From a bacterium (GTDB lineage Bacteria; Patescibacteriota; Minisyncoccia; Phycocordibacterales; UBA5272), in contig JAHFNC010000004.1 of the NCBI GenBank assembly GCA_023267535.1, positions 3,757-67,756 of the forward strand: a stretch of DNA of 64,000 bases, in the 5' to 3' direction. Under the pieces are notes generated by a model, which was not told the origin of the DNA, searched no databases, and was given only the letters and a program-made list of their open reading frames with translations. Positions 19,565 to 63,849 of this stretch are shown in pieces. Numbering within the stretch: position 1 is the first letter of the stretch; the number at the start of each line of letters is the position of its first letter. Made by a program: the position numbers and the translations under genes.

Positions 19565-20269
19565 ATGAAGAAAATTCAAGACGACATAATTAGCTACAGA
19601 GAGATGTGTGATATAGAAAATGTTCAAACACTTCAGCGTGGAATGAATTTTCGTATGAACCAAAAATACTCCGTCATATTAATGTCCCAAAGATCAAACG
19701 CTCCATATATTGATAAGGTTCATGCGGATGGTTTAACTATTGAATATGAGGGACACGACGTCTCCAGAATTACAAATGAGCCCGCCTATAATCCAAAGCA
19801 ATATGATCAATCAGAGAAATTACCGAGCGGGAAATTAACACAAAATGGATTTTTTATAAAAGCTGTAAAAGAATTTAAAAAAAGTATGGCTAATCCAGAG
19901 CTTGTTAAAATTTATGAAAAAGTTTTTCCTGGTGTTTGGTCTTTGAAAGGCTATTTTGATCTCATTGATTACAGAAATGTTAGAGATGAAAAAAGAAATG
20001 TGTTTCGCTTTATTCTGAAATTATCAAATCGTCAAGAAAATTATGATTCAAAGGTTGCGAAAATTGAACACACAAGATTGATTCCGTCAGAAGTAAAAAG
20101 AGAGGTTTGGAAACGAGATGATGGAAAGTGTGTTATTTGTGGAGATACAAAAAATTTACACTTTGACCACGATCTTCCTTTTTCAAAAGGGGGCACAAGT
20201 TTATCAACAAAAAATGTGCGCTTACTTTGTATGAGACATAATCTTCAAAAATCAGATAAGATAATTTAG
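19565..20269 (+). CDS. HNH endonuclease with N-terminal SRA/YDG-like domain (candidate type IV modification-dependent restriction enzyme)
   Basis: The C-terminal HNH is clear: 'CVICGDTKNLHFDHDLPFSKGG...NVRLLCMRHNLQKSD'. The N-terminal 'LQRGMNF...SVILMS...APYIDKVHADGLTIEYEGHD...VKIYEKV..GVWSLKGYFDLIDY' resembles SRA-type base-flipping domains. Confidence 0.6.
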   Translation: MKKIQDDIISYREMCDIENVQTLQRGMNFRMNQKYSVILMSQRSNAPYIDKVHADGLTIEYEGHDVSRITNEPAYNPKQYDQSEKLPSGKLTQNGFFIKAVKEFKKSMANPELVKIYEKVFPGVWSLKGYFDLIDYRNVRDEKRNVFRFILKLSNRQENYDSKVAKIEHTRLIPSEVKREVWKRDDGKCVICGDTKNLHFDHDLPFSKGGTSLSTKNVRLLCMRHNLQKSDKII

Positions 20270-20278
20270 TATTTCTAC

Positions 20279-20325
20279 TTATCCACAGTTGTTCTATTGC
20301 AGTAGAACAATCGTTCTAATATACT
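20279..20325 (+). promoter_or_regulatory. lexA promoter with SOS box and upstream DnaA-box-like element
   Basis: TTGCAG (20297-20302), 17 nt, TATACT (20320-20325). The spacer holds TAGAAC-AATC-GTTCTA (20303-20318), a GAAC-N4-GTTC box. Second palindrome TTGTTCTA-N6-TAGAACAA at 20289-20310. TTATCCACA at 20279-20287. Confidence 0.6.
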
Positions 20326-20331
20326 GAATTG

Positions 20332-20895
20332 ATGAATGAGGAAGAAATTTTAATATCATTTTTTACGGAAAATAAAAGAATGCCAACATACGAAGAGATG
20401 AAAGGTCTCTTCGGTGTGGCTTCAAAAAACACTGTGGCTTTCAGAGTAAATAAATTATTAGAAAATGGTTTCTTGATTAAGAAAGGAAGTAAAATTGCTC
20501 TTGCTCAATCTGGCTCAGTTGTGAGATTGGGAACTGTTCAAGCTGGATTTCCAACTACTGCAGACGAAGATGTCGTATCCGAGTTATTATCACTTGATGA
20601 TTTTTTAATAGAAAGAAAGAGTTCAACATATATGTTGGAAGTGGTTGGTGAATCAATGAAAGATGCCGGAATAATTGAAGGCGACTTGGTTTTAGTAGAA
20701 AGAGGAAAGACTCCACGTCGTGGAGATATAGTTCTAGCACTTGTTGATAATGAATACACGCTGAAATATTTAGAAACAGAAAAAGGAAAACCAGTGCTTG
20801 TGCCAGCCAATAAATTATTTAAGAAAATCTATCCAAACCCAAACAAATTAAAAATCGAAGCAGTTTTAAAAGCAGTAATTAGAAAATATAGATAA
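20332..20895 (+). CDS. lexA: LexA repressor (S24 peptidase)
   Basis: wHTH N-terminus, cleavage-site region 'VQAGFP', catalytic Ser context 'VVGESMKDAG' and Lys context 'EYTLKYL'. Confidence 0.9.
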   Translation: MNEEEILISFFTENKRMPTYEEMKGLFGVASKNTVAFRVNKLLENGFLIKKGSKIALAQSGSVVRLGTVQAGFPTTADEDVVSELLSLDDFLIERKSSTYMLEVVGESMKDAGIIEGDLVLVERGKTPRRGDIVLALVDNEYTLKYLETEKGKPVLVPANKLFKKIYPNPNKLKIEAVLKAVIRKYR

Positions 20896-20899
20896 ACAT

Positions 20900-21477
20900 A
20901 TGAAATTATTTAACATCACAATTACAATACAGAGCTCCATAAAAAACGACGAGCCAGTTTACAAAAATGAACTAATAAGTAGACACATTAATTTCGCTTC
21001 AAAACTTACTCAACTTTCTAGATTATAAATAACTATTTCAAATATATGTCACCATCACCACGCGCCATAATACAAATAAGCACAACAGGAAAGAATTTTT
21101 CTCGTATAAATTATAGTCGTCGCATGTATGCCGTCATTAGACGTTATACACCGGACGTGGCTGAGGGTAATATAAATGAATGCTTTGCTGATATAACCGG
21201 ACTTCGCACTTTCTTTAAAATGTCATACAAAGAATTGGCAGAAAAAATTCTTAAAGATTTAAATAAAGAAATTGGTGTGCAATTTACAATCAGAATTACT
21301 TCAATGAAAGCCTTTCAAAATGCAAAAACTAACAGTAGAAACTCCAAGAGTATTTCTACTTACAAAGAATTAAACAAACTTTTTGCCGGACTATCATTTG
21401 TTGAAGCCAAAAATCGTAAAAGCTTAATTAGTAGAAGAAGAAAATTTGCCGTACCATTTATTGGTAAGGTTGCATAA
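20900..21477 (+). pseudogene. decayed Y-family DNA polymerase (DinB/UmuC-like) relic
   Basis: Two frames. 20900-21028: 'LFNITITIQSSIKNDEPVYKNE', compare '..IDMD.FFASVE....P.L.gk'. 21046-21477: 'YSRRMYAVIRRYTPDVAEGNINECFADITGL', compare 'Y...S..i..i...yt..vE..SiDEafLDvTg'. Has a frameshift, internal deletions, a missing thumb/little finger, and substituted catalytic acids. Confidence 0.65.
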
Positions 21478-24514: not shown

Positions 24515-26401
24515 ATGACTGTAAGTGAAATTAGAGCAAAATTTTTATCATATATGGAAATGAAGGGGCACAAAGTTGTCTTTTCTTCGTCATTAAAACC
24601 AGAGAATGACCCAACCACACTCTTTACTGGCTCCGGAATGCAACCAATGCTTCCATATTTGCTTGGTCAGCCTCACGAATTGGGAAAAAGGATCGCTGAT
24701 TCGCAAAAATGTTTTCGTTCACAAGATATAGATGATGTTGGAGATAACCGCCACACCACTTTCTTTGAAATGCTTGGAAATTGGTCATTTGGTGATTATT
24801 TTAAGGGAGAAGAAATCGTCTGGATGTTTAATTTTTTAATTGGTGAACTTCACCTTGACCCAAAAAACTTCTACGTAACTTGTTTCAAAGGAAATTCTAA
24901 TTTAAATATTCCAAGAGATGATGTATCGGCTGACTTGTGGAAAAAAACTTTCAAACAAAAAGGATTAGATGTAAAAGTTGGAGAGAATCCAGAAGTTGAT
25001 GGAATAAAAGAAGGAGAACATATTTTCTATTATGACGAGAGAAAAAATTGGTGGTCTCGTTCTGGAATTCCAAAGAATATGCCAGAAGGTGAGCCTGGGG
25101 GGCCAGATTCTGAAATGTTTTATGACTTTGATTCTGATTTATCAAAAAAGATTCACGCTAATTCAAAATTTAAAGATAGTGTTTGTCATGTGAACTGTGA
25201 TTGTGGAAGATTTTTGGAAATTGGAAACAATGTTTTTATGGAATACAAGAAAGTTGGAAATGGCTTTGAAGAATTGCCACAGAAAAATGTTGACCACGGC
25301 TCTGGACTAGAAAGACATGCTTGTGCTGTAAATAATGACGAAGATATTTTTAATATCGATGTATTTAATGAAGCAAAAAATACTATAGAAAGATTATCTG
25401 GTAAAAAATATCGCGATGATGAAAAAGTAACTTATGCTTATCGTGTAATTCTTGATCATCTTCGTGCCGGAACATTTTTAATTGGAGATGATGTTTTACC
25501 AGGGAATAAAGATCAGTCATATTTCGTGCGCCGACTTATTCGTCGTTCAGTGAGATTCGCCAGAAATTTAGGAATTGATAAAAATTTTACAAAATCAATC
25601 GCGCTTTCATTTATTGAAGTTTATAAAGACGAATATAAAAATCTAAACGAAAAGAAAGAAATCATTTTATTTGAAATGGAAAAAGAAGAGACTAAATTTA
25701 GAGCCACTCTTGAAAAAGGAATAAAAGAATTCGAGAAAATCGGTAGTAGAGACATTTCAGGACACAATGCATTTGATTTACTTCAATCTTACGGATTTCC
25801 AATTGAACTTACAATTGAACTAGCAAAAGAAAGAGGTTTAAATGTTGATTTAGTTGGATTTGAAGAAGAAAAGAAAAAGCATTCTGAAAGTTCTCGCACT
25901 GCTTCCGCTGGAAAGTTTAAAGGAGGACTAGGAGGAGACGGAGAAATAGAAACAAAATATCATACAGCTACACACTTATTACACGAAGCATTACGCCAAG
26001 TACTTGGAGAACACGTGGAACAAAAAGGTTCAAACATCACATCCGAAAGATTACGTTTTGATTTTTCTCATAATGAAAAAATGACAGACGAAGAAAAGAA
26101 AAAAGTTGAAGATTTGGTAAACGAAAAAATAAATGAAGCATTGCCAGTGAAAAGAGAAGAGATTAAGAAAGATGAGGCCATAAGTAGAGGCGCAATTGGA
26201 CTTTTCGGTGATAAATATGGCGACGTGGTTACGGTTTATAGAATCGGAACTGGCGAAAAAAGAGGGGATACAAATTTGTTTTCAATGGAATTATGTGGTG
26301 GTCCTCATGTTGCCAACACCAAAGAACTTGGTCACTTTAAAATAGTAAAAGAAGAAGCAGTCTCTGCCGGTGTTCGTCGAATAAAAGCGATTTTGTCTTA
26401 A
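24515..26401 (+). CDS. alaS: alanine--tRNA ligase, short form without a C-Ala domain
   Basis: 'FTGSGMQPM', 'FFEMLGNWSFGDYFK', and editing-domain 'HTATHLLH' and 'CGGPHV'. 628 aa. Confidence 0.93.
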   Translation: MTVSEIRAKFLSYMEMKGHKVVFSSSLKPENDPTTLFTGSGMQPMLPYLLGQPHELGKRIADSQKCFRSQDIDDVGDNRHTTFFEMLGNWSFGDYFKGEEIVWMFNFLIGELHLDPKNFYVTCFKGNSNLNIPRDDVSADLWKKTFKQKGLDVKVGENPEVDGIKEGEHIFYYDERKNWWSRSGIPKNMPEGEPGGPDSEMFYDFDSDLSKKIHANSKFKDSVCHVNCDCGRFLEIGNNVFMEYKKVGNGFEELPQKNVDHGSGLERHACAVNNDEDIFNIDVFNEAKNTIERLSGKKYRDDEKVTYAYRVILDHLRAGTFLIGDDVLPGNKDQSYFVRRLIRRSVRFARNLGIDKNFTKSIALSFIEVYKDEYKNLNEKKEIILFEMEKEETKFRATLEKGIKEFEKIGSRDISGHNAFDLLQSYGFPIELTIELAKERGLNVDLVGFEEEKKKHSESSRTASAGKFKGGLGGDGEIETKYHTATHLLHEALRQVLGEHVEQKGSNITSERLRFDFSHNEKMTDEEKKKVEDLVNEKINEALPVKREEIKKDEAISRGAIGLFGDKYGDVVTVYRIGTGEKRGDTNLFSMELCGGPHVANTKELGHFKIVKEEAVSAGVRRIKAILS

Positions 26402-50270: not shown

Positions 50271-50408
50271 ATACATAATAACGCTTTTTATTATATAGAG
50301 TCGTAAAGTACCGTTGTAAGACATTTTAGGGATCTTAATGTCTTACAACGGCTACAATCTTTTACGACAATACATAATAAGAGTTTTTGTTATGTATTGT
50401 CGTAAAAG
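50271..50408. repeat. composite repeat: two ~38-nt direct repeats flanking a perfect 15-bp hairpin
   Basis: DR1 at 50271-50308 and DR2 at 50370-50408 match at 31/39 positions by hand alignment, with a 99-nt period. Hairpin 1: CCGTTGTAAGACATT (50311-50325) / AATGTCTTACAACGG (50337-50351). Hairpin 2: ACGACAATACATAA (50364-50377) / TTATGTATTGTCGT (50390-50403). Confidence 0.8.
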
Positions 50409-50543
50409 ATATATTGTGCGACATTGCCTATATAAATCCCCCGATACGAAAACCTTGAAAACTAGACAACTTTACTTAGCGTCATAAATAACATTTTAAA
50501 ATAATTTACAAACAAGCTTTCTCTTACCCTTTCAATCGTCAGA

Positions 50544-53484: not shown

Positions 53485-53905
53485 AATTTTCTTCGTAATC
53501 TTTTATTGCTTCACGTAATGCCAAATGACCAAGTACCGAGCAATGATATTTTCTATCGGGTAACCCTCCTAATCTATCAATAATAGCTTCTGGCGTAATG
53601 TGTTTAGCTTTAGAAATTTCCATACCGTCATTTTCTAATACCATTGTAGACATCATAGAAGTAGAAGCAATCGCCGAAGCACAACCAAATGTTCTCCATT
53701 TACATTCATAAATATTTTTCTTATCTTTGTCTATCTTTATCCAAACCACCATCATGTCTCCACAAGCTGGGCTTCCAACAATTCCAATACCATCGGCTTC
53801 GTAATTACTTTCATCTAAAAGAATGTTTCGCGGACTCAAAAAATGATCTTTAACAACGTCGCTGTATAACCAATTATTTACATCACAAATTTGTTTATCG
53901 TTCAT
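53471..53905 (-). CDS. nifU: NifU/IscU-type Fe-S cluster scaffold
   Basis: 'GSPACGDMM', 'FGCASAIASTS' and 'YHCSVLG'. Confidence 0.9.
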   Translation of the reverse strand: MNDKQICDVNNWLYSDVVKDHFLSPRNILLDESNYEADGIGIVGSPACGDMMVVWIKIDKDKKNIYECKWRTFGCASAIASTSMMSTMVLENDGMEISKAKHITPEAIIDRLGGLPDRKYHCSVLGHLALREAIKDYEENYGRK

Positions 53906-55214
53906 ATATTTTTAAAGTAAGAGCTGACATTTGTGTTAAATCTTCAACGATTTTAGGAAAAATATTGAGGACTCTATCTATATCTTCTTTAGTTGTATGT
54001 CGGCCAAAAGAAAATCTCAAACTTCCGTGAATAAGTTTTACATCTTGTCCGATAGCTAAAAGTACATATGATGGTTTCAAATCGTTTGAGGAACAAGCCG
54101 AACCAGTAGAAACTTCTATTCCTAAATTATCTAATTTAAGAAGCATTGACTCCCCTTCTATGTAGGGAACGGTGACATGCGTAATTGATGGAGATCTAAA
54201 TTCTAGAGGAACATTAATTAAAATATTTGGAATTAATTCCTCCAATTCCTCTACAAAATATTTTTGTAGACTTTTTAATCTTTCATATTCTTCTTTTCTA
54301 TTTTCTTGTGCTTTAGTGAGCGCTAAAGAAAATCCAAAAATATTGGCAATGCTTTCTGTCCCACTTCTTAGTCCCCTCTCCTGTCCACCACCGAAAACTA
54401 TTGGGTGTAATTTAATGTCATTTCTTTTATAAAGAAGACCAATACCAGCAGGCCCATAAATTTTAGAACTATTGATAGTCATCAAATCTACACCTAAATC
54501 TTTTACATCTAAAGAAAAAAGATTCGCCGCCTGACAAGCGTCTGTATGTATTAAAGGTTTAAATGGAGTTTCATTTTTTATTCTTTCAGATAATTCTTTT
54601 ATGGGCTGTATGGTTCCAATTTCATTGTTTACGTACATTACGGAAATTAATATTGTCTTTGTGGTAATTAGAGTTAAACATTCTTCTATTTTTATTCTGC
54701 CAAAATTATCAACTGGCATAAAGCTTATTTCAAACCCTTCTTTTTCTAATTGATTAACTGCTTCTATAATTGATTTGTGTTCAATAGAAGAAATAATTAT
54801 ATGATTCCCATTTTGACGATTAGCGCGAGCAAAACCTAAAATAGCTAAATTATTTGCTTCTGTCCCTCCGCTCGTGAAGATAATTTCATTATCGTTTGAA
54901 TTAATTATTTTTGAAATATCAATTCTTGCATTTTCAATTATTCTTTTTGCTTTTCTGCCACTAGTGTGAACAGAAGAAGGGTTGCTATAATCTAATCCAA
55001 AATACGGAAGCATTGTACGAAACACCTCTTTATCAATAGGAGTGCTTGCTGCATAATCTAAATATATTCTTCTATCAGCGACGCCAGACGAGAGAAGTGA
55101 GAAAGTATTCTTTTTCACTTCCGAGTCAAGGAGCTGAAAAGGTAAACGCTCCTTAGTAGCATCCTTGTGATTCTTATCTTGTTTAACTTTACCTGATTCC
55201 GCAATATTTAACAT
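53895..55214 (-). CDS. nifS: cysteine desulfurase (NifS/IscS class)
   Basis: 'FTSGGTEANN', PLP-Lys region 'NSSKIYGPAGIG', and active-site 'SGSACSS'. Confidence 0.92.
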   Translation of the reverse strand: MLNIAESGKVKQDKNHKDATKERLPFQLLDSEVKKNTFSLLSSGVADRRIYLDYAASTPIDKEVFRTMLPYFGLDYSNPSSVHTSGRKAKRIIENARIDISKIINSNDNEIIFTSGGTEANNLAILGFARANRQNGNHIIISSIEHKSIIEAVNQLEKEGFEISFMPVDNFGRIKIEECLTLITTKTILISVMYVNNEIGTIQPIKELSERIKNETPFKPLIHTDACQAANLFSLDVKDLGVDLMTINSSKIYGPAGIGLLYKRNDIKLHPIVFGGGQERGLRSGTESIANIFGFSLALTKAQENRKEEYERLKSLQKYFVEELEELIPNILINVPLEFRSPSITHVTVPYIEGESMLLKLDNLGIEVSTGSACSSNDLKPSYVLLAIGQDVKLIHGSLRFSFGRHTTKEDIDRVLNIFPKIVEDLTQMSALTLKIYER

Positions 55215-55875
55215 AATTTTGTAATCCCTTTTGAAAGGATGTTAATTCTTCTTCTGAGTAAGTAATCTTATTTTTAAATTGTGGGTTTAGAATTTTAGTT
55301 GAAACAAATTTTTGTAAATAATATTTTTTTGCACCCCTTATTTCTTCCCCTATTTCTAAAACATCAGATTCCGATACTAAAGATTTAATAAGAGTTGTTC
55401 TAAATTCATAATCTATAGGCGATGACAAAAGTAAATCAATACTTTGTCGTATTTTCTCGATATCGACCGGACGAGAAACAGTTTGGCTATATTTTGAAAG
55501 TGGAGATTTTATATCCATAGCAATATAATCAACAACACCTTCACTTATAGCTTTTTTAAGAACACTCGGATTTGTACCGTTTGAATCAAGCTTTACCAAA
55601 AATCCTAATTCTTTTATTTTTTTAATAAATGAAATTAAATCATTGTGCATTGTCGGTTCACCGCCGGTTATAACCACACCATCTAACAACCCAACTCTCG
55701 TTTTTAAAAAATCCATTACTTCTTCTTCGTTTATTCTAGTTTCCACTGTCTCATCGACCAATTCTGGATTATGACAATAAGGACAACGGAAGTTACATCC
55801 AATGGTGTATAAAATACAAGCTGTTTTTCCTGGATAATCAATTAGAGTAAATTTTTCTAATCCTCCGAATATCAT
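55189..55875 (-). CDS. nrdG: anaerobic ribonucleotide reductase activating enzyme (radical SAM)
   Basis: 'CNFRCPYCHN' and 'VVITGGEP'. ATGA overlap with nrdD. Confidence 0.92.
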   Translation of the reverse strand: MIFGGLEKFTLIDYPGKTACILYTIGCNFRCPYCHNPELVDETVETRINEEEVMDFLKTRVGLLDGVVITGGEPTMHNDLISFIKKIKELGFLVKLDSNGTNPSVLKKAISEGVVDYIAMDIKSPLSKYSQTVSRPVDIEKIRQSIDLLLSSPIDYEFRTTLIKSLVSESDVLEIGEEIRGAKKYYLQKFVSTKILNPQFKNKITYSEEELTSFQKGLQNYVKYCGIR

Positions 55876-58037
55876 TTTTGAATTACTAATGGAGACTCTA
55901 TTAATTTTGACTCAATAATATTGTGCTCATACATTTCTCGGCAATCAAATTCAGCTCGTTTACCTTCATTCCATTGACTCACTGGACGAATATAACCCAC
56001 TATTCTTGAATAAACTTCGCATTCATTATTGCAAGTTGGACATAAATGTTTTTCACCATTTATATACCCATGAGAAGGACAGACGCTGAAAGTTGGGGTT
56101 AGCGTAAAGTATGGCAATTTAAAATTCTCACAAATCTTTTTGACAAGCACAGGAACAGATGATGGGTCAGCAACTCTTTCTCCTAAGAAAAGATGCATAA
56201 CTGTTCCACCGGTGTATTTTGTTTGCAAACCATCTTGAATTTCTAAAGTTTCAAAAATATCTTTTGAAAAATTAACTGGTAAATGAGAAGAATTAGTGTA
56301 ATAAGGATTGGCTTTTTTATTATTATAATCGTCTTCATTAGCAACAAGTATGTCAGGGAAAGCTTTTTTGTCATTTAATGCAAAACGATAGGCAGTCCCC
56401 TCTCCTGGTGTTGCTTCTAGATTAAATAAATTATCTGTCTCTTTTTGATATTGCACTAATCTTTCACGCATAAAATCCAATACGTCTGAAGCAAAAGCTC
56501 TCCCTTTTACAGTACCAATATTTTCTCCAAGTAAATTAAGAGAAGCTTCGTTGGTTCCAATCAAGCCAATGGTAGAGAAATGATTTTTCCAATATTCACC
56601 ATAGGACTCTTTTATTTTTCTTAAATAGAATTTTGTATATGGATATAGATTGGCGTTAGTTAATCTTTCTAACATTTTTCTTTTAATCTCCAAGCTTTCT
56701 TTGGCAATATCCATTTGCAAAGCCAGCGAGTCGTAAAATTCTTTTTTAGCTTTTCTTATGTCTTTCGGAAATTTCTTGCTAGCTTTGTAAGCAAGACGTG
56801 GAAGATTTATGGTTACCACACCAACTGAGCCAGTTAAAGCGTTTGCACCAAACAATCCTCCTCCACGCCTATCTAATTCAGCGACGTCTAATCTCAAACG
56901 ACAACACATTGATCTTGTGTCTTCCGGCTTCATATCTGAACTAACAAAATTACTAAAATACGGAATACCATATTTAGCAGTTATTTCCCAAAGACCTTTT
57001 AGGTTAGGATTATTCCATTCAAAATCTTTGGTGACATTCACTGTTGGAATTGGAAAAGTAAAGACTCTACCTGAGGCGTCCCCTTCATACATAACTTCAA
57101 AGAGAGCTTTGTTAAACATGTTCATCTCTCTTTGAAATTCTTTGTATGTTTCAACTTGAGGTTTACCGCCGATAATTACCTTTGTGTCTTTAAAATTTGC
57201 CGAGGGTGTTAAATCAAGAGTGATGTTTGAAAATGGAGTTTGAAATCCAACTCTGGTTGGTACATTCATATTAAAGATGAATTCTTGAAGCCCTTGCTTA
57301 ACCTCATCAAAGGTAAGTCCATCATAACGAATAAACGGTGCAAGAAGTGTATCAAAATTAGAAAAAGCAATGGCGCCAGCTGCCTCACCTTGAAGCGTGT
57401 ACATAAAGTTGACTGCTTGCCCCAAAGCGGTGCGAAAATGCTTAGGAGGGGCAGATTCTACCTTACCAACTACCCCCTTGAACCCTTCAGTAAGTAAATC
57501 CATTAAATCCCAACCAACACAGTAAACAGAAATAAGACCTAAATCGTGAATATGTATATCTGTTTTCTCATAGGCATCTCTTATTTCCTTGGGATATATC
57601 TTATTTAACCAGTAAGTCTTACTAATTTCACCAAAAACATAGTTATTTAACCCTTGCAAGGAATATTCCATGTTACTGTTTTCTTTCACTTGCCAATCAC
57701 TTCTATCCAAATAATTATCAACCATGCCAAGTGACATAGAAGTAGCAAAAGCGCGAAGTTCAGCATGTTGCTTTCTGTATAGAATATAGGCTTTAGCTGT
57801 TTCTTTGTATTGAGAACGCATCAAAACTAACTCCACCACATCTTGAATATCTTCAACAGTTGGCTCGTTTCCGACTATATTTTTGTCCACTATAGAAATA
57901 ACCTTTTTTGATAGTATTTCTGCCTCCTTCGCATCAAATTCTCCAGTAGCTTTACCTGCTTTGACTATTGCTATGGTAATTTTTTTATAGTCAAAGGCTA
58001 CTTTGGCACCATTTCTTTTGATAATGAATTTTGGCAT
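55872..58037 (-). CDS. nrdD: anaerobic ribonucleoside-triphosphate reductase (class III)
   Basis: N-terminal ATP-cone, C-terminal Zn site 'CPSHG...CPTC' and glycyl-radical motif 'RIVGYIRP'. Confidence 0.96.
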   Translation of the reverse strand: MPKFIIKRNGAKVAFDYKKITIAIVKAGKATGEFDAKEAEILSKKVISIVDKNIVGNEPTVEDIQDVVELVLMRSQYKETAKAYILYRKQHAELRAFATSMSLGMVDNYLDRSDWQVKENSNMEYSLQGLNNYVFGEISKTYWLNKIYPKEIRDAYEKTDIHIHDLGLISVYCVGWDLMDLLTEGFKGVVGKVESAPPKHFRTALGQAVNFMYTLQGEAAGAIAFSNFDTLLAPFIRYDGLTFDEVKQGLQEFIFNMNVPTRVGFQTPFSNITLDLTPSANFKDTKVIIGGKPQVETYKEFQREMNMFNKALFEVMYEGDASGRVFTFPIPTVNVTKDFEWNNPNLKGLWEITAKYGIPYFSNFVSSDMKPEDTRSMCCRLRLDVAELDRRGGGLFGANALTGSVGVVTINLPRLAYKASKKFPKDIRKAKKEFYDSLALQMDIAKESLEIKRKMLERLTNANLYPYTKFYLRKIKESYGEYWKNHFSTIGLIGTNEASLNLLGENIGTVKGRAFASDVLDFMRERLVQYQKETDNLFNLEATPGEGTAYRFALNDKKAFPDILVANEDDYNNKKANPYYTNSSHLPVNFSKDIFETLEIQDGLQTKYTGGTVMHLFLGERVADPSSVPVLVKKICENFKLPYFTLTPTFSVCPSHGYINGEKHLCPTCNNECEVYSRIVGYIRPVSQWNEGKRAEFDCREMYEHNIIESKLIESPLVIQK

Positions 58038-58078: not shown

Positions 58079-58185
58079 ATCTTAAGCCCTGTTGATAAGA
58101 TGCGCAATAGAACAACTGTGGATATAAAAAGTCCTTATTTTACAAGGTTTTTTTGGAAAATAAAATATTTTAGTTATCCACAGTT
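58079..58185 (-). promoter_or_regulatory. nrdD promoter region with three DnaA-box-like elements and the 20-mer shared with lexA
   Basis: On the minus strand: TTGCGC (58107-58102), 17 nt, TAAGAT (58084-58079). TTATCAACA (58098-58090) sits in the spacer. ATATCCACA at 58125-58117. TTATCCACA on the plus strand at 58174-58182. 58104-58123 is the exact reverse complement of 20281-20300. Confidence 0.55.
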
Positions 58186-58385
58186 CCGTTTTTAAAATGA
58201 TTGTGTTTTAGCAAAAATTGTAAATCTCTTTTTCCATATTTTTGATTGAATTTTTATAAAAAAATAATTTAATTTTTAAAATTATAAATTTATATATGCA
58301 AATGATTCGCATTTGTATCGACACTAGACTTTATTTCAAAAAAAAGTTAGATTAATTAAAGTTTAGTTCTTATGAGGTCATTCCA

Positions 58386-58880
58386 ATGACACAACTGATT
58401 ACAAAAATAAACATTGCTCATCTAGCGTCGCTTGCAAAAATTCCCAAAAAAGAATTACCAATTTCTTCACTCAAGAATAAATCAGCTCCCCTTCCATTTG
58501 ACGCAGAAAAAAGAGAGTCTGTCATCCGTGCACTTTTTCGTGTAAGAAATTTTTGCACTGAAGAGTTAGGAAGAGGAACTTTAATCTTTAATGAAAAAAT
58601 GTTGAACATCGGACTGCAATTCGCAAATTTATCACTTCATCATCTCAAACAAAACCAAAATGAGGATGATATTCTTCTTGAAAATTTTTTGGATGAATAT
58701 AAATACATACTTAAGAACTTGCGAATGATTGATGTGGAAAAAGTAAGTGACGCTATCCCCTTCTGGAAAACAGGTGCGAGCCGCGCAGAATTTAGGCGCA
58801 GCGCAAATGTTTCTGTTGGCGGTAAAGCACATCCGACTTTTCTTCTTTTTCTTTTACCACGCACATTACAAGAGCTGTAA
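58386..58880 (+). CDS. hypothetical protein (164 aa)
   Basis: ORF with a downstream terminator. No motif. Confidence 0.4.
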   Translation: MTQLITKINIAHLASLAKIPKKELPISSLKNKSAPLPFDAEKRESVIRALFRVRNFCTEELGRGTLIFNEKMLNIGLQFANLSLHHLKQNQNEDDILLENFLDEYKYILKNLRMIDVEKVSDAIPFWKTGASRAEFRRSANVSVGGKAHPTFLLFLLPRTLQEL

Positions 58881-63294: not shown

Positions 63295-63570
63295 ATGGCA
63301 ACAAGAAAAGCCGCTGGTTCGGCAAAAAACCTAAAAGATAGTAAGCCAAAATACCTAGGTACAAAGCTCTACGCTGGAGAAACTGCAATGGCTGGTAATA
63401 TTATCGTTCGTCAAAGAGGAACAAAAATAATGGCCGGCAAAAATGTTGGTGTTGGAAAAGATCACACTCTTTACGCACTAAAGACAGGTAAAATTAAATT
63501 CACTGAAAAAAGAAAAGTTGGATTTGATGGATCTTGGAAGAAAAAGAAAGTAGCAAACATTGAGCTATAA
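63295..63570 (+). CDS. rpmA: 50S ribosomal protein L27
   Basis: '[22 protein letters not shown]....[26 protein letters not shown]'. Confidence 0.95.
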
Positions 63571-63606
63571 AATTAAAACTCACCATTATAATGGTGAGTT
63601 TTAATT
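63571..63606. terminator. bidirectional terminator, 16-bp perfect stem
   Basis: AATTAAAACTCACCAT-tata-ATGGTGAGTTTTAATT between the convergent rpmA and rhodanese genes. Confidence 0.75.
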
Positions 63607-63849
63607 TATGTCTTTTAATCCTCCTAAATTTTTTGCATTCACGTACCCTAAGCCCTTTAAAATTTTTGTAGCTACCCCTGCTCTTCCACCCGCCATACAA
63701 TAACAGCCAATATCTTCGTCTTTTTTAATTTTGGAAATTTCTCCCAAGTCTCCTTTTATAATTTGCTCTATTGGAATATTTATTGCTCCTTCTGCATGTT
63801 TACTTTTATATTCCTCTTTTGTTCTGACGTCAATTAAAATTTGGCTCAT
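63601..63849 (-). CDS. single-domain rhodanese-like sulfurtransferase
   Basis: 'LIDVRTKEEY' and the active-site loop 'CYCMAGGRAG'. Confidence 0.85.
   Translation of the reverse strand: MSQILIDVRTKEEYKSKHAEGAINIPIEQIIKGDLGEISKIKKDEDIGCYCMAGGRAGVATKILKGLGYVNAKNLGGLKDIN

Follow-up and report, generated by a model that had tools for sequence, protein, structure and literature searches.

One conserved 9-base site was found at the same position in the promoters of lexA and nrdD in the 64-kb stretch of DNA analysed here (hereafter the window), which comes from an uncultivated Candidatus Paceibacterota bacterium (Patescibacteria/candidate phyla radiation, CPR). LexA is the SOS repressor and NrdD a class III ribonucleotide reductase (RNR), and the shared site suggests that DnaA, the replication initiator, controls both genes. 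We think it probable, if well short of certain, that the site serves a regulator dependent on the face of the helix, upstream of two weak promoters, and that this regulator is most likely DnaA. For comparison, the corresponding loci of relatives were used (labelled L followed by a number).

The first-pass annotation of this DNA had reported an exact 20-mer shared by the two promoters and had judged it very unlikely to have arisen by chance. The 20-mer, ATCCACAGTTGTTCTATTGC, is present in just two exact copies in the window, at 20281–20300 (+) and 58104–58123 (−), and no further match at ≤3 mismatches was found in the window or in 100 shuffles. The perfect identity extends one base further, to 21 nt (TATCCACAGTTGTTCTATTGC; 20280–20300 (+) and 58104–58124 (−)). 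This pair is the sole long-range perfect repeat of ≥17 nt in the window; for 64 kb of the same composition, the expectation is only ~0.008 perfect 21-mer pairs, whatever their sequence. The 21-mer is a composite of the 9-mer box, a 9-nt spacer (GTTGTTCTA, the same in both promoters) and TTGC, the first four bases of a weak −35 hexamer. The spacer comprises one LexA half-site (GTTCTA) plus three bases. In both copies the box lies at −53 to −45 relative to the predicted start site, so that the repeat makes up the upstream half of two predicted sigma-70-type promoters with weak −35 hexamers. The geometry described earlier, with TTGC of the −35 followed by 17 nt and a −10 (TATACT for lexA, TAAGAT for nrdD), was correct on reading the sequence, as were the downstream genes, an S24/LexA protein in one case and an NRDD protein with an ATP-cone followed by a radical-SAM activase in the other.

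In the predicted lexA promoter the box is a perfect match to the DnaA-box consensus (TTATCCACA, 20279–20287 (+)). It is separated by the spacer (20288–20296 (+)) from the predicted −35, TTGCAG (20297–20302 (+)), which matches TTGACA at 3/6 positions and whose TTG is kept in all orthologues. The GTTCTA at 20291–20296 (+) abuts the −35 and is identical to half of the LexA operator. The operator itself, TAGAACAATCGTTCTA (GAAC-N4-GTTC type, 20303–20318 (+)), fills the interval between the −35 and the −10 (TAGAACAATCGTTCTA plus A, 17 nt); it is the only perfect LexA-type match in the window, scores 28 bits with a position weight matrix (PWM) built from 24 related operators, and is kept in all related lexA promoters. 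The Gram-positive-type LexA (DinR) operator, or Cheo box, is CGAAC-N4-GTTCG; as in that system, placement of TAGAAC-N4-GTTCTA between the −35 and the −10 is the classical arrangement for autoregulation. The predicted −10, TATACT (20320–20325 (+)), is followed by GAATTG and by the ATG at 20332 of lexA (20332–20895 (+), Peptidase_S24, with a LexA equivalog match below cut-off); the recorded LexA product is the 187-aa form starting at this ATG. The −10 ends 6 nt before the ATG, without a Shine–Dalgarno sequence, and likewise in ~30 relatives; because of this short distance the lexA mRNA is probably leaderless, with its predicted start at 20332.

The predicted nrdD promoter has the same layout on the minus strand. 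Its box, ATATCCACA (58117–58125 (−)), matches the DnaA-box consensus at 8/9 positions and is followed by the spacer (58108–58116 (−)), a predicted −35, TTGCGC (58102–58107 (−); 3/6 to TTGACA, with TTGCnn kept in related nrdD promoters), and, after 17 nt, a predicted −10, TAAGAT (58079–58084 (−)); the predicted transcript start is at about 58072 and the ATG at 58037. The downstream operon (53895–58037 (−)) consists of nrdD (55872–58037 (−), containing the ATP-cone), nrdG and a cysteine desulfurase gene (Aminotran_5, class V aminotransferase); L164 and L167 have these genes in the same order. A simple promoter consensus scan called neither the lexA nor the nrdD promoter because each −35 matches TTGACA at just 3/6, and the promoter assignment therefore rests on orthologue conservation: TTGnnn-17 nt-TAnnnT is kept across orthologues of both genes.

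The closest relative of the nrdD locus, L163 (NrdD 90% identical), has the nrdD box exactly as in the window and perfectly keeps a 35-nt block, TTTTTATATCCACAGTTGTTCTATTGCG, that includes the nrdD copy of the 21-mer. Nowhere else do the window and L163 agree perfectly over so long a run (0.04–0.19 runs of this kind expected). A second, perfect box followed by GTT (TTATCCACA plus GTT, 58174–58185 (+); 9-mer at 58174–58182) is inverted relative to the nrdD box, 57 bp away centre to centre, and faces the divergent gene ORF164. The inverted copy claimed earlier, TTATCCACAGTT, is present, and it is kept in L163 as AACTGTGGATAAC at the identical 57-bp distance, while the flanks and the −35/−10 spacer diverge; the string TATCCACAGTT has three exact occurrences, at 20280 (+), 58114 (−) and 58175–58185 (+). 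A further site proposed within the nrdD −35/−10 spacer, TTATCAACA (58090–58098 (−)), turned out to be spurious. It reads TTATTAACA in L163 and is probably non-functional. One-mismatch matches to TTATCCACA occur in the window near chance frequency (27 found vs 18.8 ± 4.3 expected), and the description of this region as a cluster of DnaA-box-like sites was overstated.

We asked how far the shared elements are conserved among lexA promoters. A LexA search of a genome collection yielded ~30 close species (62–86% identity) and several more distant Patescibacteria. The box-aligned lexA set was chosen for ≤1 mismatch, and every close relative with sequence available had such a box. The layout shared by the close relatives is TTATCCACA, a variable spacer, (GTTCTA)TTGnnn, TAGAAC-N4-GTTCTA, a −10 and the ATG. 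The box was present in 33/33 distinct related lexA promoters, 26 of them perfect and the rest with one mismatch, although these counts are not phylogenetically independent. Information content was 1.6–2.0 bits at exactly the nine box positions and <0.8 bits in the adjoining flanks of the 33 promoters, the profile that an asymmetric 9-bp site for a monomer, such as a DnaA box, should give. Taken over 33–35 distinct lexA promoters of CPR relatives, conservation coincides with the nine box positions. Box and LexA operator were 16 nt (n = 2), 25–27 nt (n = 17) or 36–37 nt (n = 14) apart, ~1, 2 or 3 turns in steps of one helical turn. Such quantised spacing is the signature of a protein that needs a fixed helix face relative to the promoter. 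TGTTCTATTG was kept in ~25 related lexA promoters whether the box was 3 or 14 nt away; since it stays with the −35 at any box distance, GTTCTA belongs to the promoter/LexA part and not to the box. A 22-mer, TTATCCACAGTTGTTCTATTGC, is the same in the lexA promoters of L003 and L004. In deeper lineages the box was seen in L034 and, inverted, in L038 (Kaiserbacteria); it was not found in the lexA promoters of L033, L036 and L037.

For nrdD, a metagenome scan and look-ups gave ~70 distinct loci. In the group with NrdD at 73–77% identity, at least 12 distinct promoters read T(A/G)TCC(A/C)C box, 8–10 nt, TTGCnn, 17 nt and nATAAT, and none of them contained GTTCTA. Box variants in the relatives include TGTCCCCA and TTTTCCCCA, which depart from the classical TTWTNCACA, and T-rich spacers, for instance TGTTTCTTAA or GTTTTGCTG, occur in other nrdD promoters and already resemble GTTGTTCTA. 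Two genomes supplied both promoters. In the metagenome-assembled genome JAIPIK01, the lexA promoter (L004) carries TTATCCACAGTTGTTCTATTGC and the nrdD promoter (L167) reads CTGTCCCCA-9 nt-TTGCGG; in the 775-kb contig JBAZJW010000001.1, the lexA promoter (L022) carries TTATACACAGTTGTTCTATTG and the nrdD promoter (L164) reads CTGTCCACC-8 nt-TTGCGC. In these paired genomes (n = 2), nrdD lacked GTTCTA and no identity between the lexA and nrdD promoters was found. Identity in GTTGTTCTA between the promoters is restricted to the window organism and one near relative, L163. From the comparison of L163, the 73–77% group and the paired genomes, the box and the −35 are best read as shared, ancient features and the 21-nt identity as lineage-specific. 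The 20-mer as a single module was therefore not borne out, only box and −35 being widely shared among relatives, whereas the expectation of conservation in orthologous promoters held: the −35/17 nt/−10 arrangement is kept in orthologous lexA and nrdD promoters, and the 9-mer with which the module begins, noted earlier as a DnaA-box consensus match, is conserved at both gene families across many CPR lineages.

Other conserved palindromes were seen upstream of nrdD in some relatives. In ten loci from other CPR lineages (L093, L098, L100, L102, L103, L107, L109, L111, L113 and L114), a strong palindrome, ATAGAT-N4-ATCTAT, is present once or twice ~40–90 nt upstream of nrdD and overlaps the −35/−10, with a conserved TTATCAATATAAC then found in the leader; the palindrome may be the operator of an nrdD repressor, perhaps an NrdR variant. 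Upstream of nrdD in the more distant loci L117, L118, L124 and L125 there are palindromes resembling classical NrdR boxes, e.g. ACACAATATCTTGTGT; NrdR-box-like palindromes are absent from the nrdD promoter of the window. In L085, L088, L101 and L170/L171, a conserved palindrome, TAGTT(G/T)CG-N6-CG(C/A)AACTA, lies between the box-bearing promoter and the nrdD start. Protein searches returned hundreds of relatives of LexA at 78–87% identity but, for NrdD, one at 90% and then ≤77%, which suggests that the NrdD of the window lineage has either diverged unusually far from the NrdD of neighbouring lineages or been exchanged.

The specificity of the box to these two genes was examined by counting sense-oriented boxes with ≤1 mismatch within 150 nt upstream of genes in ~1.1 Mb comprising the window and the relatives' loci. 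A box was found in 12/61 nrdD upstream regions (Fisher p = 2e-7) and 31/100 upstream regions of lexA-sized open reading frames (ORFs) (p = 2e-18), compared with 9/485 upstream regions of other genes (~2%), counts that are not phylogenetically independent. Exact boxes upstream of the other genes were confined to divergent partners of nrdD or lexA, among them ruvB in three lineages. The nrdD–ruvB intergenic regions of L117, L118 and L124 contain a perfect TTATCCACA oriented towards the divergent ruvB, a hint that this box regulon includes ruvB as well. No other promoter with a box was found in ~80 kb of the genome under study, including the 10 kb past the end of the window, a segment that contains dnaB. 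A general promoter element was considered and rejected, as GTTCTATTG and the box are not at other promoters and one-mismatch matches are at chance level. The motif is thus not scattered, as it would be if it were a dispersed repeat: its two copies occupy equivalent promoter positions, it is conserved at the lexA and nrdD promoters and it is nearly absent upstream of other genes.

Concerning the identity of the bound protein, the direction of its effect and the physiological logic, we infer the following from the sequence comparison. The essential part of the 21-mer would be a single oriented 9-bp site (TTATCCACA or ATATCCACA) with its centre near −49. There, a DNA-binding protein acting as a monomer and held on a fixed helix face relative to RNA polymerase would modulate lexA and the nrdD–nrdG–Fe/S operon. 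The protein would most likely be DnaA, serving as an RNA-polymerase-assisting factor from about −49 (or −39, or −60). Assistance of transcription is the most likely effect because the −35 elements are poor and the box lies upstream of them. In lexA, LexA would repress separately through its own operator between the −35 and the −10. The rest of the 21-mer (GTTGTTCTA plus TTGC) would be promoter-proximal, kept in lexA as the LexA-half-site-like GTTCTA beside the −35, and the nrdD promoter of the window lineage would have come to match the promoter-proximal bases of lexA exactly. Supply of deoxyribonucleotides (dNTPs) and the level of the SOS repressor would both be coupled to the status of the replication initiator. 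The earlier proposal that one regulator ties a class III RNR operon to the SOS repressor is upheld as far as a shared, conserved and non-dispersed element is concerned; that DnaA is what binds it is a prediction.

TTATCCACA is the highest-affinity DnaA box, with TTWTNCACA as the consensus. We favour DnaA because of the 9-bp asymmetric footprint, the nucleotide/repair regulon, the weak −35 hexamers and the helical phasing. E. coli and B. subtilis share the DnaA residues that contact the bases (R399, P423, D433, H434, T435 and H439; PMC2533591). In E. coli, nrdAB is under DnaA control, as are uvrB and recN jointly with LexA (PMC8203912, PMC6015884), and DnaA was bound upstream of E. coli nrdD in ChIP-seq (chromatin immunoprecipitation sequencing; PMC11317965). 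Several points weigh against this assignment. In vivo, E. coli DnaA needs double boxes 2–3 bp apart, and just 13/32 consensus single boxes were bound (PMC11317965); in B. subtilis, DnaA binding needs dense box clusters (PMC2533591). An E. coli-type double box is not present here, the best second 9-mer at 2–3 bp being TGTTCTATT (4/9, downstream), with upstream neighbours matching at only 1–2/9. No dnaA was found in the window, in the 10 kb past its end or in ~170 loci, and no origin-like box cluster was found in these loci, apparent clusters being coding sequence or terminator hairpins. In both paired genomes the nrdD box is degenerate (CTGTCCCCA, CTGTCCACC) and the lexA box perfect or near-perfect, and the conservation counts are not phylogenetically independent. 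Finally, box function alone leaves the identical 9-nt spacer in the two promoters unexplained. A broader version of the DnaA reading is put forward tentatively, as something possible but doubtful: in Paceibacteria and the CPR lineages next to them, DnaA would co-regulate lexA and the sole ribonucleotide reductase directly and from a fixed helix face, gating the SOS repressor and dNTPs, and in the window lineage it would perhaps act through a box–LexA half-site composite reused at both promoters.

It is unlikely, though deserving of attention, that the box is real but is bound by a different CPR transcription factor or represents an accessory contact of RNA polymerase, the match to the DnaA consensus being coincidental. 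Dedicated activators typically show strict helical phasing and keep one orientation towards the promoter, as the box does, and the departure of the nrdD variants TGTCCCCA and TTTTCCCCA from the DnaA consensus would fit another specificity. Against this, the conserved footprint is exactly 9 bp, the same as the highest-affinity DnaA box, to which a DnaA with a canonical domain IV would bind in any bacterium, and no alternative factor is evident. RNR, SOS/repair genes and ruvB moreover fit the DnaA regulon known elsewhere (PMC8203912, PMC11317965).

The identity of the spacer could reflect a composite DnaA/LexA arrangement, a constraint imposed by DNA close to the −35, or the copying of a patch. 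A LexA-based explanation, which we regard as improbable, holds that the 21-nt identity is itself a sign of LexA control: GTTCTA with the overlapping box (TAGAAC-AACT-GTGGAT on the other strand) would form a weak second operator, the nrdD gene of the window lineage would have been drawn into the SOS regulon, and LexA would compete or cooperate with the protein bound at the box. GTTCTA is indeed the conserved operator half-site, invariant beside the −35 in ~25 lexA promoters, and GTTGTTCTA is the same in both promoters and kept in the nrdD promoter of L163, chance convergence over 9 nt having a probability of ~4e-6. A 2017 study of the SOS network of Patescibacteria by Sanchez-Osuna et al. is also said to include, perhaps, ribonucleotide reductase genes among the LexA targets. 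With the PWM, however, the module scored −1.5 bits (nrdD) and −4.5 bits (lexA) vs 28 bits for the true operator, and ~18 sites in the window scored higher. Unlike a Cheo box, the 21-mer holds a half-site only, with no palindromic GAAC-N4-GTTC; the true operator adjoins it at 20303–20318. No nrdD promoter among the ~70 related loci contains GAAC-N4-GTTC, and that of the window is no exception in having no full operator. In lexA promoters with long spacers, no second half-site precedes GTTCTA. Reading the module as a further LexA operator was thus rejected, and because of the negative PWM scores LexA control of nrdD is not supported by the sequence. The second-best PWM match in the window is AGGAGAACATATTTTCTATT (14.6 bits, 25012–25031), inside a 628-aa ORF at 24515–26401.

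Equally hard to credit is a functionless spacer identity, arising either by copying of a lexA patch into the nrdD promoter (gene conversion between promoters with the box and TTGC already in common) or by drift of a T-rich ancestral spacer. Its confinement to the window organism and L163, the T-rich spacers TGTTTCTTAA and GTTTTGCTG of other nrdD promoters and the lack of identity between the two promoters of each paired genome are all in its favour. The anchors, however, would be just 8 and 4 nt, very short for recombination, and the rarity of a perfect stretch as long as the 35-nt block that holds the spacer hints at constraint.

A chance repeat, dispersed repeat, mobile-element scar or replication origin can be set aside as next to impossible: the nrdD–ORF164 intergenic region is AT-rich (20% GC) and has two boxes, as an origin might, but an origin at 58.1–58.4 kb was rejected for want of dnaA/dnaN, of a GC-skew minimum at 58 kb and of any cluster of ≥3 boxes outside coding sequence or terminator hairpins (two conserved boxes only), and a dispersed repeat or mobile-element remnant was rejected because there are two copies only, both at equivalent promoter positions and conserved at the orthologous positions.

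The DnaA reading has precedents in well-studied bacteria. The DnaA boxes of E. coli nrdAB have been described by Tuggle & Fuchs (1986), Augustin et al. (1994) and Olliver et al. (2010), reviewed in PMC8203912. The arrangement is alike in that a consensus TTATCCACA lies just upstream of the −35 in a promoter for ribonucleotide reductase, where in E. coli DnaA at high-affinity boxes stabilises RNA polymerase and couples dNTP synthesis to the initiator (PMC8203912). E. coli nrdAB differs in having a double box, gTTATCCACAaagTTATGCACTt, with an ATP-DnaA-specific box, at a class Ia enzyme; here a single predicted box precedes a class III operon in a CPR bacterium. E. coli nrdDG (Stringer, Fitzgerald & Wade, 2024; PMC11317965) belongs to the same class III RNR family and likewise has TTATCCACA followed by G; its double box is tTTAAGAACAggTTATCCACAg, whereas the second perfect box in the window is 57 bp away and inverted and not in tandem at 2–3 bp. 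In E. coli uvrB and recN (Wurihan et al., 2018; PMC6015884), a single promoter holds both DnaA boxes and LexA operators, as would be the case here, but those are SOS effector genes and the target in the window is lexA itself. In B. subtilis, DnaA is a LexA-independent transcription factor for replication/nucleotide genes (Goranov et al., 2005, cited in PMC8203912; Ishikawa et al., 2007, PMC2533591), with dense clusters for stable binding, unlike the single boxes here.

Several neighbouring features were recorded. In the 234-aa product of the gene directly upstream of the lexA box (19565–20269 (+)), nothing but an HNH nuclease motif at the C terminus could be recognised; the protein resembles the HNH region of IscB weakly and below threshold, and the sequence at this place in relatives is unrelated. 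On the 3′ side of lexA, a 143-aa ORF (21046–21477 (+)) matches only residues 74–136 of the Y-family polymerase (IMS) domain; it is also found in L001, L002 and L166 and looks like a conserved truncated DinB-like gene and not a fresh pseudogene. ORF164 (58386–58880 (+)) matches nothing in Pfam or NCBIfam; the ORF at the equivalent position in L163 (149 aa) is only 31% identical over 84 aa, which marks ORF164 as a fast-evolving small gene divergent from nrdD. An imperfect palindrome, ATGCAAATGATTCGCAT (58296–58312), ~75 nt upstream of ORF164 and kept as TTGCGAATTATTTGCATATA in L163, is a candidate operator for this gene. A structured RNA was rejected, as no Rfam or ARAGORN match fell in the nrdD–ORF164 spacer or in ORF164. 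At ~50.1–50.5 kb, gene orientation and GC skew switch sign and the cumulative skew reaches its maximum; a 24-nt inverted repeat (50357–50410, 96% complementary) at the convergent junction there may act as a bidirectional terminator or indicate that the replication terminus is near. A perfect 19+19-nt palindrome without a loop, AAATTAAAACTCACCATTA/TAATGGTGAGTTTTAATTT, lies at 63570–63607.

No report of DnaA control of lexA itself, or of DnaA boxes in Patescibacteria, was found in the literature searched, and lexA as a DnaA target appears to be new, as does the quantised spacing. The class III RNR half of the link is less new than the first-pass annotation assumed, because DnaA binding upstream of E. 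coli nrdD has already been published (PMC11317965). How DnaA activates transcription has been described as poorly understood (PMC11317965), and a box at ~1, 2 or 3 helical turns from the LexA operator would amount to a natural spacing experiment on DnaA activation.

The whole significance of the finding rests on sequence comparison. CPR bacteria have tiny genomes and very few transcription factors, and to our knowledge almost nothing is known of their transcription control. If the DnaA reading is true, the DnaA regulon, with nrdAB, nrdDG, uvrB and recN in E. coli, would extend to the SOS master repressor, and the replication initiator would double as a key transcription factor in CPR bacteria.

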